Shown piece after piece: positions 43,019 to 47,837 of a DNA stretch of 64,000 nt. The position numbers and the translations under genes are program-made. A model generated the notes under the pieces. It was not told the origin of the DNA. It made no database searches and saw nothing but the letters and a program-made list of their open reading frames with translations. The DNA lies in the NCBI GenBank assembly GCA_963805625.1, contig CAWDVE010000010.1, positions 256,001 through 320,000 of the forward strand, in the 5' to 3' direction. Source of the stretch: an uncultured Candidatus Rokubacteria bacterium. GTDB taxonomy: Bacteria > Methylomirabilota > Methylomirabilia > Rokubacteriales > DASRDR01. The number at the start of each line of letters is the position of its first letter. Positions within the stretch are counted from its first letter, which is position 1.

Positions 43019-43768
43019 ATGCCGCCCGTCCGGCTACACAAGCTCATCGCCGAAGCGGGCGTCGCGTCGCGGCGGGCCGCCGAGCGGCTGATCGTGGCGG
43101 GCCGGGTCCGAGTCAACGGCGTGCTCGTGACAGAGCTCGGTGCCCACGCCGACCCCGAACGGGACCGCGTCGAGGTCGACGGGCGGTCGCTTCCGAGAGC
43201 CGAGCCGAAGCGCTACGTGCTTCTGCACAAGCCCCCGGGGTTCCTCACCACCCGTGAGGATCTGCGGGGGCGGCCTCTCGTGTTCGACCTCGTGCCGGAG
43301 CTCGGCGTTCGCCTCCACTCGGTGGGGCGGCTCGATTTCGACGCCGAGGGGCTCCTCCTGCTGACCAACGATGGTGCCCTCACGTTCCATCTCACCCATC
43401 CCCGGCACGGCGTCCGCCGCGTCTACCACGTCCTCGTCGAGGGACGCCTCGAGCCGGACGTGCTGCGGGCGCTCGAGCGTGGGGTGGTCCTGGAAGACGG
43501 GCCGGGCCGCGTCGACCGCGCTCGGAGGCTGCGTGGCGAGGGTACCGGGCGAAACTGGGTCGAGCTCAGCCTGTCCGAGGGGCGGTACCGGGAAGTCAAG
43601 CGGCTCTGCCGCGCGGTGGGCCTCGTCGTGCAGCGCCTCCGGCGGGTCGCCTTCGGGCCGCTCGAGCTGGGGGACCTGCCGTTGGGGCAGTGGAGGGAGC
43701 TGACGCCGGCCGAGGTGAGGAGTCTGGCGGCCGCGGGGCGGGGCGACCTTTCCAGTCGCGGGCGCTAG
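43019..43768 (+). CDS. rluB: 23S rRNA pseudouridine synthase (RluB/RsuA family)
   Basis: S4 domain (GVASRRAAE), HKPPG, VGRLD catalytic motif, GLLLLTNDG, EGRYREVKR; follows scpAB. Confidence 0.9.
   Translation: MPPVRLHKLIAEAGVASRRAAERLIVAGRVRVNGVLVTELGAHADPERDRVEVDGRSLPRAEPKRYVLLHKPPGFLTTREDLRGRPLVFDLVPELGVRLHSVGRLDFDAEGLLLLTNDGALTFHLTHPRHGVRRVYHVLVEGRLEPDVLRALERGVVLEDGPGRVDRARRLRGEGTGRNWVELSLSEGRYREVKRLCRAVGLVVQRLRRVAFGPLELGDLPLGQWRELTPAEVRSLAAAGRGDLSSRGR
43634..43717 (+). repeat. direct repeat copy 1 (3' end of rluB)
   Basis: 72/84 nt identical to 46500-46583 by manual alignment, with a perfect 22-nt core GGGCAGTGGAGGGAGCTGACGC. Confidence 0.92.
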
Positions 43769-44118: not shown

Positions 44119-44250
44119 ATGAAGATGCTGCCCAATGTCGATATCCCCCATGAGTCGTTCAACAGCCTTGTGCGGGCCGGTACTGCAGGAGACACGATCA
44201 ACAGCATTCTCGAGAGCCTCAAGCCGCAGGCGGCCGAGCAGTGGACCTAG
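44119..44250 (+). pseudogene. truncated 43-aa relic of a small hypothetical protein
   Basis: AAGAGG RBS, then MKMLPNVDIPHESFNSLVRAGTAGDTINSILESLKPQAAEQWT*; resembles (from memory, unverified) the N-terminal part of a ~100-aa uncharacterised family. Confidence 0.5.
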
Positions 44251-44269: not shown

Positions 44270-44737
44270 ATGATTCCCGATCGAGTGGTCGAGGTCCTGC
44301 ATGGCCCAGTGTTCATTCAAATCGGGACCCGAGACGAGGCGCTTCGGCCTGCGCACACCTTTGCTGTGGGGGCAGTGGTCCACGAGGACCGGCAGACGGT
44401 GACGGTCTTCGTCCCGACCGCTCGCGCGGCGCGCGTCCTGCGCGATCTGACGGAGAACGGTCGGATGGCGCTCGGTGTCGCGCTCGCCAACCACGAGGCC
44501 TACCAGCTCAAGGGAACATACCTCTCATCCCGACCCACGGATGACGCAGACCGGGCCCGCCAGGAGGTGTACCGCAGCGCGCTGTTGGCGTCTGCCCTCG
44601 CGGCCGGCTTCCCGGACGCGATTGCGCGGCCGCTGACCCTCGGCCTTGCCTACACGCCGGGCGTCGCGATCACCTTTCGGGTGGCGGAGGTTTTTCTACA
44701 GACTCCGGGGCCCGGTGCCGGGACCCTCTTGTCCTAG
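44270..44737 (+). CDS. PNPOx-like split-barrel protein A (155 aa, C-terminal QTPGPGAG)
   Basis: IGTRDEALRP...DLTENGRMAL...HEAYQLKG pattern of pyridoxamine-5'-phosphate-oxidase-like barrels; ATG 44270 preferred over 44135. Confidence 0.7.
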   Translation: MIPDRVVEVLHGPVFIQIGTRDEALRPAHTFAVGAVVHEDRQTVTVFVPTARAARVLRDLTENGRMALGVALANHEAYQLKGTYLSSRPTDDADRARQEVYRSALLASALAAGFPDAIARPLTLGLAYTPGVAITFRVAEVFLQTPGPGAGTLLS

Positions 44738-44752
44738 GAGAAGCAGCGGTTC

Positions 44753-45187
44753 ATGGGCCTCTTACCAGACGAGATCAAGCCGGCCCTGCAGGGTGTGATT
44801 CCGTCGCACGTCGTGACGTGCTCGCGGGACGGCACGCCGAACGCGAGCGCGATTTCGCAGGTCTACTACGTCGATCCCGATCACGTGGCGCTCTCCCACC
44901 AGTTCTTCAACAAGACCAAGCGCAACATCGAGGAGAATTCTCAGGCCGCGGCATGGGTGATCAGTCCCGAGACCTTCGAGACGTGGGACCTCGAACTGGA
45001 GTTCGTCCGGTCCGACATCAGCGGGCCGATCTTCGACGTCATGGAGATGCAGATCGAGGCCATCGCCTCCATGGTTGGAATGAAGGGCATCTTCAAGCTT
45101 CGGGCCGCTGACATCTTCCGGGTGGCGGCCGTGAGGAAGACCGTCGGAGAGCGCATCCCGCTAGCGGAGATTCCCGGGCCTCGCTGA
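44753..45187 (+). CDS. PNPOx-like split-barrel protein B (144 aa)
   Basis: VVTCSRDGTPN...SQV...FFNKTKRNIEEN, the T-x3-DG-x-P and K-T-x2-N-x3-N pattern of FMN-binding split barrels; AGGAG RBS. Confidence 0.8.
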   Translation: MGLLPDEIKPALQGVIPSHVVTCSRDGTPNASAISQVYYVDPDHVALSHQFFNKTKRNIEENSQAAAWVISPETFETWDLELEFVRSDISGPIFDVMEMQIEAIASMVGMKGIFKLRAADIFRVAAVRKTVGERIPLAEIPGPR

Positions 45188-45202
45188 CGTCACAATACGA
45201 CA

Positions 45203-46498
45203 GTGGCTGCTGATCCCCGCGATCCGTCCGCGCTCCGTGAGCAAGTCGCCAAGAATCAGCAGACGATCGACCGCCTGAACCGCGACCTTGCCAGGAAGTC
45301 CAACGACGTCCGGATCATCCAGCAGATCTCCTCCGAGATCACTTCCACGCTAGACCTTGACGAGGTCCTGGAGATTATCCTCCGGGCGATGGATCGCGTC
45401 CTCGGCTTCACGCACTCCATGATCCTCCTCAAGGACCTGGTCGCCGACCTCCTAAGCGTCGCGGCGACCCGCGGTTACACCGACGAGGGCGCCGGGGCTC
45501 AGGTGCGTTTGGGAGAGGGCGTCATCGGCGTGGTCGGCGAGCGCCGGAAGATGATGCGGATCGGGAACATCGGCGCCAGCATGCGCTACCTGAAGAGCGT
45601 GCGCGCGCGGATGGAAGCCGCGGGCGAGGTCGGCCCCGGAGAGGCGACGGCTTCGATGCCGGGCCTACCGGACGCGCAGAGCCAGCTTGCCCTGCCCCTC
45701 ACCGTCAAGGACCACCTCGTGGGCGTCCTGGTCGTGGAGAGCCGAACGCCGAACGCCTTCGACGAGCTGGACGAAGTCCTCCTAAGCATCGTCGGGAACC
45801 AGGCGGCGACTGCCATCGACAACGCACGTACCTACCGAATGGTTGAGCAGCTGGGCCGCCTGAAGCGCTTCTTCTCGCCCCAGCTGGCCGAGCTGATCAT
45901 CCGGGGCGGGGCGGACGATCCCCTGAAGACGCACCGGCGAGAGGTTACGGTCGTCTTCCTCGACCTCCGCGGGTTTACCGCCTTCGCGGAGACCTCCGAG
46001 CCCGAGGAGCTGATGGGGGTACTGCGCGAGTACCATGCCGAGATGGGCAAGCTGATCCTCGCCCACGAGGGGACTCTGGAGCGGTTCACAGGCGACGGGA
46101 TGATGGTCTTCTTCAACGACCCCCTCCCGATGCCGGACGCCGCGGAACGCGCCGTGCGCATGGCGGTGGCCATGCGGGAACGGGCCGCCGAGCTGGCGGT
46201 ACGCTGGCACCGCAGCGGCTACGAGCTTGACCTCGGCATCGGCGTCGCCAAGGGGTTCGCCACCATCGGCGCCATTGGCTTCGAGGGGCGCTGGGACTAC
46301 GGCGCGATCGGCACCGTCACCAACCTGGCTGCGCGTCTCTGCGGCGAGGCCAAGCCCGGCCAGATCCTGATCTCGCCCCGACTTCTCCCGGAGCTGGAGC
46401 AGCTCCTGGAGGTCGAGGAGGTGGGACTCCTGGCCGTCAAGGGTCTGGCGAGACCGGTGAAAGCGGTGAACATCGTGAGGCTCCGGGACCCCGCCTGA
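45203..46498 (+). CDS. coiled-coil + GAF + class III nucleotidyl (adenylate/guanylate) cyclase
   Basis: N-terminal coil; GAF (LDLDEVL, GEGVIG, LALPL, VGVLVVES, F...D); cyclase motifs FLDLRGFT, RFTGDG, GIGVAKG, NLAARL. Confidence 0.93.
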   Translation: MAADPRDPSALREQVAKNQQTIDRLNRDLARKSNDVRIIQQISSEITSTLDLDEVLEIILRAMDRVLGFTHSMILLKDLVADLLSVAATRGYTDEGAGAQVRLGEGVIGVVGERRKMMRIGNIGASMRYLKSVRARMEAAGEVGPGEATASMPGLPDAQSQLALPLTVKDHLVGVLVVESRTPNAFDELDEVLLSIVGNQAATAIDNARTYRMVEQLGRLKRFFSPQLAELIIRGGADDPLKTHRREVTVVFLDLRGFTAFAETSEPEELMGVLREYHAEMGKLILAHEGTLERFTGDGMMVFFNDPLPMPDAAERAVRMAVAMRERAAELAVRWHRSGYELDLGIGVAKGFATIGAIGFEGRWDYGAIGTVTNLAARLCGEAKPGQILISPRLLPELEQLLEVEEVGLLAVKGLARPVKAVNIVRLRDPA

Positions 46499-46499
46499 C

Positions 46500-46634
46500 C
46501 GCCCTCGGCGGGTCACTTTCGGGTCGCTCGAGCTGGGCGAGCTGCCGCCAGGGCAGTGGAGGGAGCTGACGCTGGTCGAGGTGGCCCGTCTGGCCGCTTT
46601 CCGGGCCGAGGCGCCATCCCGCCCTCCGTTCTGA
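46500..46634 (+). pseudogene. displaced, decaying duplicate of the rluB 3' end (repeat copy 2)
   Basis: reads RPRRVTFGSLELGELPPGQWRELTLVEVARLAAF...* versus rluB RLRRVAFGPLELGDLPLGQWRELTPAEVRSLAAA...*; both reach a stop at codon 45. Confidence 0.88.
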
Positions 46635-46707
46635 GCCGGCTGCTGTCGGTCTTCGCGGAAGGGGCCCCTCCGGCCCTCTCTCGGGGCCGCCCCTGGCGGG
46701 GGCTTGC

Positions 46708-46736
46708 TTGCGTGGCGCCTATCCCTGGCCTATACT
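46708..46736 (+). promoter_or_regulatory. sigma70 promoter for the pheA run
   Basis: TTGCGT-N17-TATACT; GGAG RBS before ATG 46773. Confidence 0.65.
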
Positions 46737-46772
46737 ATGCGGGCTTTTCTACGCCCCCCTCCTGGAGATTTG

Positions 46773-47837
46773 ATGGGTTTGGATGAATGGCGAGCACGTA
46801 TCGATGAAATCGACCGCCAACTCCTCCGGTTGCTCAGCCAACGGGCGGAGCTCTCGCTCGAGATTGGCCGCGCGAAGCGAGAGGCCGGTGAGCCGGTCCT
46901 GGTCCCCGAGCGCGAGCAGGAGATCCTCGACGAACTGGCTCGTCTGAACCCGGGGCCGCTGCCTGCCGGGGCGATCCGCGCGATCTGGTCCGAGGTCCTG
47001 TCGGCTTCTCGCTGTCTCCAGCGGCCGTTCCGCGTGGCCTACCTCGGCCCCCAGGGAACTAACACGCATCTGGCCGCGCTCCGGCACTTCGGCTCGAGCG
47101 CCGAGTTCCTGCCCGCGCGCGGCATTCCCGAGGTCTTCGAGGAAGTCGAGCGCGGCCGGGCGGACGTCGGAGTCGTGCCGATCGAGAACTCGAGCGAGGG
47201 GGTGGTGAACCACACCCTCGACGGGCTGATCGACTCGGAGCTCCTGATCTGCGGAGAGGTGTCGCTCGAGATTCACCACAACCTCCTCTCCCGCGCCGCC
47301 GATCTCGGCGACGTCAAGCGTGTCTTCTCGCATCCCCAGGCCCTGGCCCAGTGTCGCGGCTGGCTCAACCGGCACGTGCCGGACGCCGAGGTGGTGGAGA
47401 TGGCGTCCACGTCGATGGCGGCGGAGCAGGCCGCGCTCGACGCCTCCACGGCGGCGGTGGCGAGCGAGTTGGCCGGCCAGCTGTACCGCATCCCCGCGCT
47501 TCGCGAGCGCATCGAGGACTACGCGAACAACGTCACCCGGTTCCTCGTGATCGGCCGCCGGGCCGCCGGCCGGACGGGACGGGACAAGACCTCGATCCTG
47601 TTCTCGATCCGCGACGAGGTAGGTACGCTCCACCGGATCCTGGAGCCGTTCGCGCGCGCGCGCCTGAGCCTCACGAAGATCGAGTCGCGGCCCACCCGGC
47701 GACGACCGTGGGAGTACGTCTTTTTCGTGGACTTCGAGGGCCACCGGGACGACCCGGTGACGCAGGGCGTGCTGGCGGCCGTCCGCGAGCGCTGTCTCTT
47801 TCTCAAGGTTCTCGGGTCGTACCCGGTGCTGGTGTGA
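46773..47837 (+). CDS. pheA: chorismate mutase / prephenate dehydratase
   Basis: RARIDEID, YLGPQGT, PIENSSEG, SHPQALAQC, NVTRF, IESRP, LGSYP. Confidence 0.96.
   Translation: MGLDEWRARIDEIDRQLLRLLSQRAELSLEIGRAKREAGEPVLVPEREQEILDELARLNPGPLPAGAIRAIWSEVLSASRCLQRPFRVAYLGPQGTNTHLAALRHFGSSAEFLPARGIPEVFEEVERGRADVGVVPIENSSEGVVNHTLDGLIDSELLICGEVSLEIHHNLLSRAADLGDVKRVFSHPQALAQCRGWLNRHVPDAEVVEMASTSMAAEQAALDASTAAVASELAGQLYRIPALRERIEDYANNVTRFLVIGRRAAGRTGRDKTSILFSIRDEVGTLHRILEPFARARLSLTKIESRPTRRRPWEYVFFVDFEGHRDDPVTQGVLAAVRERCLFLKVLGSYPVLV

Follow-up and report, generated by a model that had tools for sequence, protein, structure and literature searches.

The A-B-C locus

The 64,000-nt window analysed here (contig CAWDVE010000010.1, positions 256,001 to 320,000, of an uncultured Candidatus Rokubacteria bacterium) carries three co-oriented open reading frames (ORFs), A, B and C, with a 15-nt gap between each neighbouring pair. 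A and B encode small split-barrel proteins and C a GAF-class III nucleotidyl cyclase. We report that A, B and the GAF domain of C make up a real, mobile and widespread input module. The features of the unit are the following:

44270..44737, + strand: gene A, 155-aa split-barrel protein with second-half motifs kept (Q79, K81, G82, Q144-G151)
44753..45187, + strand: gene B, 144-aa split-barrel protein with first-half motifs (T22, N30, S35, H44, Q50, F52, K54, T55, N58)
45203..46498, + strand: gene C, 431-aa soluble coil-GAF-class III nucleotidyl cyclase, GTG start
45350..45820, + strand: GAF domain of C (residues 50-206), dedicated GAF and third conserved part of the module
45563..45685, + strand: GAF insertion region of C (residues 121-161), with Y129, P153-G154-L155 and S160-Q161 at least 92% conserved; candidate docking site
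45935..46444, + strand: cyclase domain of C, with D254, D298, N374, R378 and K413 present and R294/G367 at the base-selecting positions

Protein A ends in QTPGPGAG-TLLS, and B contains TCSRDGTPN, SQV and FFNKT. In Pfam, B matched PF01243 above its cut-off of 28.1 bits (30.1 bits) and A below it (22.2 bits), while C matched GAF_2 (residues 50-206) and Guanylate_cyc (residues 245-414) and had no receiver domain. No membrane helix was evident in A, B or C, the maximal 19-residue hydropathy being 1.19, 1.05 and 1.38, respectively; the N-terminal coil of C was judged by reading the sequence, without computation. The ORFs, Pfam matches and hydropathy thus agree with an earlier account made from the letters of the window (the sequence-only reading), which had described an operon of two dissimilar split-barrel proteins and a soluble GAF-class III cyclase. 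A and B were dissimilar by BLAST (E ~0.5) and homologous by profile comparison (HHalign 96.4%, E 1.2e-9). Both are single-copy in their own genome, where the next-best match of the A profile had an E value of 9e-5.

A, B and a dedicated GAF domain travel together

Starting from B, we recovered A upstream in all 38 first genome loci and a GAF domain downstream in 37, the exception being a truncated B. In the full set of 144 B loci (without the own locus, the truncated locus and a generic barrel, but with repeat copies of the same locus), A was upstream in 136/136 loci with at least 150 nt of upstream flank, and a GAF was present in 122 of the 124 with at least 250 nt of downstream flank. The two misses were L070, where the GAF gene is divergent and adjoins A, and L113, with 516 nt to the contig end.

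The reverse search with the GAF profile gave 39 matches in 683 genomes of three phyla (261 + 221 + 201), with 11-15 candidates scored per genome, so that copies can be missed. The matches fell into two sets: 27 reached E 1e-38 or better, and 12 lay between 1e-22 and 1e-25. A and B accompanied 25 of the 27 strong matches, three of these 25 being centre genomes chosen as carriers (22/24 when they are excluded). The remaining two were one with B reaching the contig end and L177, which had neither A nor B. None of the 12 weak, generic GAF matches had A or B within 1.5 kb. The trio arrangement is far beyond chance, and A, B and GAF very probably constitute a portable functional unit. The sequence-only reading had proposed that A and B are portable, which stands; the dedicated, insertion-bearing GAF subfamily belongs to the unit as well.

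With centre genomes included, the module occurred in 13/351 Pseudomonadota, 25/261 Acidobacteriota at a loose cut-off (24 strong), 2/201 Myxococcota and 1/221 Chloroflexota genomes. The Myxococcota sample held a third match, a generic barrel without GAF (3/201 in all). A search of viral contigs with a single B query found no locus. The family is large, with 1,554 clusters of A at 50% identity (E up to 1e-10) and 1,483 longer B homologues. Its members carry no annotation beyond "hypothetical" and "GAF domain-containing protein". Plasmid-borne B homologues were found in Azospirillum lipoferum 4B, Rhizobium etli CFN 42 and Sinorhizobium fredii, and A plus the fused form was confirmed in the first two.

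Some individual loci are worth recording. An insertion sequence element interrupts B in L037:5001-6675, where the downstream GAF-kinase is frameshifted, and L028:2386-7090 has a tandem A-B-A-B ahead of a GAF-His kinase and a receiver-cyclase. In L025 and L027, titled Klebsiella pneumoniae and Enterobacteriaceae, the module groups with Binatia copies on the tree; these contigs are possibly misbinned.

One input, six classes of output

All three parts were present at 121 loci, 104 of them non-redundant at 95%. The outputs fell into six classes, namely cyclases, His kinase, sigma54-type AAA+, AAA+-Ser/Thr kinase, PP2C phosphatase and a winged-helix-like domain. Among the 104 trios, whose output shares mirror the choice of queries and not natural frequency, 39 had the winged-helix-like domain (B fused to GAF in all), 35 the cyclase clade of gene C, nine an AAA+-like domain plus Ser/Thr kinase, five a His kinase, four PP2C, four other cyclases and one a sigma54-type AAA+ (L030, cut at the contig end); seven were cut off. 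The co-occurrence of A, B and GAF, found in both search directions, comes with variable outputs, as anticipated by the sequence-only reading. In the concatenated tree (quick mode, midpoint root, support by Shimodaira-Hasegawa-like approximate likelihood ratio test only), all 65 free-B forms grouped in one branch (99), within which the outputs alternate.

B-GAF fusions accounted for 112 of the best 120 among the longer B homologues, in line with the sequence-only reading, which had B-type domains fused to GAF domains and next to A-type genes in other bacteria. P0377 carries A, B, GAF and the winged-helix-like domain in a single 660-aa chain. There were also 7-8 apparent A-B fusions among the 120, including the frameshift-like P0004, P0005 and P0062, to which we give little weight. 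The AlphaFold2 (AF2) model of a natural B-GAF-output fusion had a predicted local distance difference test score (pLDDT) of 84.5 and a predicted template modelling score (pTM) of 0.82. In the model, the fused relatives have a C-terminal domain of 105 aa (sheet, helices, hairpin), whose secondary-structure order fits the Trans_reg_C fold; it had no Pfam match, and the fold lists were filled by GAF.

Two further architectures were observed. L029:5412-7820 and its relatives have an unusual succession of GAF, degenerate sigma54-type AAA+ and Ser/Thr kinase. In L122:3960-7893, L127 and L139, a separate cyclase comes after A-B-GAF-PP2C, and L122 also has an upstream DUF6272 gene; the arrangement is similar to a partner-switching cluster.

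A and B are split barrels with complementary conserved halves

The AF2 model of A (pLDDT 97.5) matched the FMN-binding protein 3in6 with a VIA Z score of 13.6 (root-mean-square deviation, rmsd, 2.9; 123 aligned) and HupZ (7kpz) with 13.4. The B domain of the natural fusion matched the same structures with Z scores of 15.6 (rmsd 2.9, 128 aligned) and 13.9. The nearest folds of both were Swol_0183 (3in6), HupZ, MSMEG_3380, YviC and the Desulfovibrio FMN-binding protein. By these models A and B are both split barrels, the fold expected by the sequence-only reading, and they are distant paralogues. True pyridoxine/pyridoxamine phosphate oxidase, PdxH, is about 200 aa or longer including a C-terminal PNPOx domain; we rejected this identity for A and B, which have 155 and 144 aa, match PNPOx_N only and reached PdxH structures at E 0.17-0.95.

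Conservation was computed from 146 A rows and 86 B rows, with less diversity among the latter. N30, S35, Q50 and K54 of B were 99-100% conserved and the same positions in A 17-32%, whereas Q79, K81, T145 and P148 of A were 95-100% conserved and the same positions in B 28-50%. Overall, the fixed positions of B lie in the first half (N30, S35, D41, H44, Q50, F51, F52, K54, T55, N58) and are variable in A, whereas those of A lie in a second-half strand and the tail (Q79, K81, G82, Q144-G151) and are variable in B. N30, S35, K54-T55 and N58 of B align with identical residues of 3in6. A joint A+B profile matched homodimeric HupZ end to end (E 3e-9); it came from an alignment of A-B fusions that collapsed A onto B and served for this purpose only. 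Split barrels are dimers in which each of the two homodimer sites is built by both chains. Because of these shared sites, and because A and B keep different halves, the conservation predicts an A:B heterodimer with one cofactor site per dimer.

The chances that the cofactor is a flavin, most likely flavin mononucleotide (FMN), appear about even. F420, another candidate of the sequence-only reading, is unlikely as the family cofactor because cofD was found in 0/9 other carriers tested, all of the DNA-binding type and of completeness not shown. The own genome has cofD above the family cut-off (contig C10, 791069-791974) and may make F420; against the F420-dependent PPOX model TIGR03618, which needs 79 bits, B scored 20.7 bits and A had no match. 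A histidine in the C-terminal loop is the axial heme ligand of HugZ/HutZ barrels, according to the accessible parts of PMC11602992 and PMC9237417. A has no conserved histidine beyond position 75, and B none beyond position 44.

The prediction of an A+B+FMN+GAF complex scored 0.91, two controls with the GAF replaced 0.00 and a control with A replaced 0.80; we used these values neither for nor against binding. We gave up folding the full A-B-GAF fusion, since MAFFT had aligned the A rows wrongly in their C-terminal part.

The GAF domain as the likely docking partner

The strong GAF group has a ~25-residue insertion with a near-invariant Y129 and PGL..SQ, which the inspected generic GAFs lack; a relative modelled with AF2 has a helix in this region (helix 241-256 of P0010). 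The sequence-only reading had placed docking on the coil or the GAF. The fused forms lack the N-terminal coil, so that docking is more likely on the GAF than on the coil. That reading had also listed light among the candidate signals. Bilin-binding GAF photoreceptors carry a conserved chromophore cysteine. Light sensing has little support, because no cysteine column reached 60% in 75 GAF rows, and the GAF of the window has no cysteine at all. On the NifA model the GAF gave a weak match (32 bits against a cut-off of 529).

Likely targets of the DNA-binding relatives

In Pseudomonadota, a hemerythrin subfamily was found in 12/351 genomes, 11 of the 13 carriers compared with 1 of 338 others, the profile having been built from 9 carrier loci that match by construction. 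Among the 11 carriers, it is directly adjacent in ten and 7 kb off with a stop codon in one. These proteins (L058:6401-7069 and nine similar loci) are ~225 aa long with conserved His/Glu ligands, and their nearest structure is the iron/oxygen-sensing domain of FBXL5 (E 3e-8). In Acidobacteriota, a secreted mono-heme cytochrome c lay within the fetched 7-12 kb in 18/19 extended loci, and with a profile built from 7 carrier loci, again matching by construction, it was found in 23/23 carriers of the DNA-binding form compared with 24/238 others (one, G618, unpublished). At L194:3767-4306, L204:3439-5014 and similar loci, this cytochrome follows an 11-bp repeat and often precedes a secreted two-CxxCH protein of ~340 aa. 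Further neighbours were flavin monooxygenases, cupin, arylamine N-acetyltransferase and YceI proteins, and E1 dehydrogenase subunits.

Pairs of CTTAG and of TTAGG at 11-bp spacing occurred in 12 and 11 of 20 upstream regions, the best of 200 base shuffles giving 5. The strict 11-bp direct-repeat pattern was present in 23/39 DNA-binding loci and 0/63 split loci. Such targets point to redox, O2/NO or iron-heme stress. We infer a redox- or gas-linked signal because the DNA-binding form adjoins hemerythrin, c-type cytochrome and flavin monooxygenase genes with a shared upstream repeat; redox, O2 or NO would be the signal with about a one-half chance. For the copy in the window, such a signal would follow from the input parts it shares with these relatives. 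The own genome has two relatives of the target cytochrome, which are two-heme forms elsewhere; the repeat was absent in the one inspected.

The cyclase of gene C

The catalytic set is intact, with the two metal Asp (D254, D298), N374, R378 and K413, and the best structure matches were Pseudomonas aeruginosa CyaB (3r5g, E 1.2e-34) and Synechocystis Cya2 (2w01). The base-selecting sites are R294/G367, identical in 55/55 close GAF-fused copies (redundant ones included), compared with Lys/Thr in CyaB and Glu/Gly in Cya2. Class III adenylyl cyclases have Lys plus Asp or Thr at this pair and guanylyl cyclases Glu at the first site. Neither the standard adenylyl pair nor the guanylyl signature fits R294/G367. 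From the accessible parts of PMC11224242, EaPycC selects CTP by F100, R142 and Q144; at the matching spacings the cyclase of the window keeps Phe and Arg and has Thr instead of Gln. Cyclic AMP (cAMP) is slightly more likely than not the product, a pyrimidine or mixed product would be clearly less likely, and cyclic GMP a little less probable still. With Arg294/Gly367 in place of the Lys/Thr of CyaB, production of cAMP is not certain, and this alone could make cya complementation fail.

The cyclase domain is 70-75% identical to those of five receiver-cyclases of the same clade in the same genome (G000; C17:715988-717202, C17:116106-117278, C10:780044-781399, C13:505503-507536 and C13:595417-596928), so that the GAF appears to have taken the place of the receiver domain. 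The genome has 17 matches to cyclic nucleotide monophosphate (cNMP)-binding domains, possible readers of the product, and an exact-pattern search found no TGTGA-N6-TCACA site in it. The class III cyclase profile matched 39 segments of the genome; in many of them the first specificity site is occupied by Gln or Glu.

A candidate sensor and its alternatives

We propose that A and B would pair as a split-barrel heterodimer with a single predicted cofactor site, most likely for FMN. The heterodimer would dock on the GAF by way of B, given that B and the GAF are one chain in the DNA-binding form and remain neighbours where they have split. A probably redox-linked signal would be passed to whichever output the GAF carries, here the nucleotidyl cyclase. 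Transmission could run via the GAF C-terminal helix into the cyclase dimer, as it does in other GAF-class III cyclases. The case from genomics is strong, and the mechanism is a prediction. A physical A:B:GAF complex controlling the output is likely. For the explanation as a whole, a barrel pair plus GAF acting as a cofactor-binding, probably redox, sensor, the balance is even. Just short of that we place a new cytoplasmic input class, in which a homodimeric flavin barrel would have been duplicated, its site split between chains and dedicated to one GAF subfamily, as a cassette that five or more phyla use with cyclases, kinases, phosphatases, sigma54-type activators and transcription factors; the Arg/Gly cyclase of the window might make a cyclic nucleotide other than cAMP, outside defence.

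Several observations weigh against this proposal. Many split barrels bind heme or nothing. Matches to flavin-bound structures were weak (best single-family E 1e-4) at 10-20% identity, the accessible text of PMC11602992 cautions against inferring FMN from the split-barrel fold, and HupZ, the nearest sequence relative, is reported as a homodimeric heme binder (PMC9237417); with heme, His tags mislead according to the same paper. The GAF gene of L070 is divergent from A-B, and the strong but frameshifted GAF of L177 stands without A and B. The distance correlations among A, B and GAF (0.77-0.82) indicate joint travel and not binding, because adjacent genes share history. Finally, the target genes are absent beside split versions, the hemerythrin being found neither in the own genome nor in any of 10 split-type carriers, so that the redox inference is carried over from another branch, and the hemerythrin and cytochrome counts include the loci that supplied the profiles.

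A and B could instead be a flavin-dependent enzyme that makes, matures or destroys the GAF's own ligand, the linkage reflecting channelling. Characterised split barrels are mostly enzymes, the fold matches include reductases, biliverdin reductase Rv2074 and the prenyl-FMN maturase PhdC, the fold neighbours of the GAF include ligand-binding GAFs and fRMsr, and fusion and strict linkage fit an enzyme-sensor pair equally well. We nevertheless consider it unlikely: the two nearest genes on each side of 38 split-type loci (judged by eye from N-terminal sequence, only some scanned) included no recurring substrate-supplying gene, the long helix of B and the GAF insertion are highly conserved, as expected of a protein interface, and only one of the two sites looks retained. 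Slightly less probable again is the same architecture with heme as the cofactor, the module reporting heme, iron or gas. Here HupZ, a heme binder (PMC9237417), is the best sequence match, B keeps H44 (98-100%) and M97 (91-97%) and A H75 (77%), and of the neighbouring targets one carries heme c and another is a di-iron protein with the FBXL5 domain as its closest structure; however, A and B have no conserved histidine in the C-terminal loop, the site of heme ligation in HugZ-type proteins, B retains the K-T-x-x-N motif in common with 3in6, and heme-uptake genes were not recognised among the neighbours scanned.

The loss of first-half motifs in A and of second-half motifs in B could also mean loss of the cofactor, A:B being an adaptor or a binder of a non-redox metabolite with the barrel pocket as a plain ligand pocket, and the arylamine N-acetyltransferase, cupin, YceI and E1 dehydrogenase neighbours could indicate a specific chemical. 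This is improbable given that the kept halves are exactly complementary and 95-100% conserved across sequences averaging 34-53% identity. A Pycsar-type anti-phage system, defined by PycC beside a cNMP-binding transmembrane or TIR effector (PMC11224242), is the least credible of all. The PADLOC PycC models match the cyclase (best E 1.7e-19), R294 precedes the second metal Asp by four residues, as does R142 in EaPycC, a cCMP cyclase (same source), and the distribution is patchy and the unit inserted. Yet CyaB is the far better match, the same cyclase clade occurs in the five receiver-cyclases of the own genome, A and B have no PADLOC match, most trio copies carry non-cyclase outputs, and no effector gene is present, the neighbours being rluB and pheA, in line with the low rank that the sequence-only reading gave to defence.

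Relation to known systems

The proposed cofactor sensor beside modular outputs is apparently an undescribed module. We found no description of an A-B-GAF module in the accessible literature, most subscription papers being out of reach, which accords with the sequence-only reading that no function had been assigned; the accessible parts of PMC11602992 mention neither GAF nor heterodimer, and those of bioRxiv 10.1101/2020.08.24.261826 do not mention GAF. Known split barrels serve as enzymes, as carriers and, in a few cases, as heme sensors; a heterodimeric one acting as a general signalling input was not described in the literature searched. The FMN-binding split-barrel homodimers (HupZ 5esc/7kpz, Swol_0183 3in6, YviC 7eg5 and Desulfovibrio 1axj) share the fold (Z 11.5-15.6), and HupZ combines a B-like first half and an A-like C-terminal tail in one protein. 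They are single-gene, with no signalling partner described in the accessible sources, whereas here two diverged paralogues are tied to a GAF.

H-NOX and NosP are small soluble cofactor proteins beside or fused with interchangeable kinases and cyclases. The proposed A-B sensor would work like them, as a small cofactor-binding unit beside swappable outputs, but they have an H-NOX or FIST fold, whereas A and B are split barrels in two subunits with which a dedicated GAF travels along. NifL, a PAS-FAD flavoprotein, regulates the GAF-bearing NifA in trans; it is likewise the partner of a GAF-bearing output, and the L030 output is a GAF-sigma54-type AAA+, but NifL serves one output and A/B six classes. 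Gene C shares the catalytic Asp, Asp, Asn, Arg and Lys with CyaB, Cya2 and GAF-regulated class III cyclases and differs by Arg294/Gly367, the GAF insertion and the upstream partner genes. OmpR/PhoB-type winged-helix regulators act at tandem repeats. The fused relatives, not the copy of the window, resemble them in the secondary-structure order of the 105-aa domain and in lying by 11-bp direct repeats; the relatives lack a receiver domain, and their input is B-GAF plus A.

The 11-bp repeat operator offers a ready reporter for finding the signal and the version of the window an enzymatic read-out, while its cyclase clade provides an unusual base-selecting pair. The cultured carriers (A. lipoferum 4B, R. 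etli CFN 42 and S. fredii) make the module directly testable.

Insertion between rluB and pheA

The A-B-C unit sits between rluB and pheA. A 98-nt direct repeat of the rluB 3' end, with copies 83% identical, marks its two borders:

43634..43731, + strand: left copy of the 98-nt direct repeat, within the 3' end of intact rluB (43019-43768)
46500..46597, + strand: right copy of the repeat, 83% identical; decayed rluB 3' end continuing into the native rluB-pheA spacer
44119..44250, + strand: remnant of a small gene, 43 codons; an intact ~100-aa form precedes A in L077

B was present in 9/14 same-genus genomes, 0/6 of other genera of the family and 2/20 further genomes of the order. In four of the five same-genus genomes without B, rluB and pheA are adjacent, 113-322 nt apart; in the fifth, 70% complete, neither gene was found. 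The empty site of one same-genus genome aligns continuously to the right copy and spacer (46497-46898, 82%). Because of the flanking repeat and the empty sites, we favour acquisition as a unit, as the sequence-only reading had proposed; gain is a simpler reading than loss, and recombination between the repeats may add loss and patchiness. The insertion site is common to 6/38 first loci, the flanks being unrelated at the others. Downstream, each of the six retains a different part of rluB residues 143-240, which suggests a single old duplication that spanned at least 300 nt and has since eroded.

The 43-codon remnant is likely part of the inserted DNA. Its intact 101-aa counterpart lies upstream of A at L077:4191-4493, and neither form had a Pfam match. 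The promoter scan called no sigma70-type promoter upstream of A on the + strand. Four RNA libraries gave short scattered contigs only, mostly from other members of the cyclase clade, and no expression evidence for the A-B-C unit. An RNA-read joint from 46503 to 43672 was rejected as a trace of excision; it falls inside the repeat and was taken as a mapping effect. A promoter-like site before pheA, TTGCGT-17-TATACT at 46708-46736, is below the scan threshold; because it is retained in the empty-site genomes, pheA probably keeps its own promoter.

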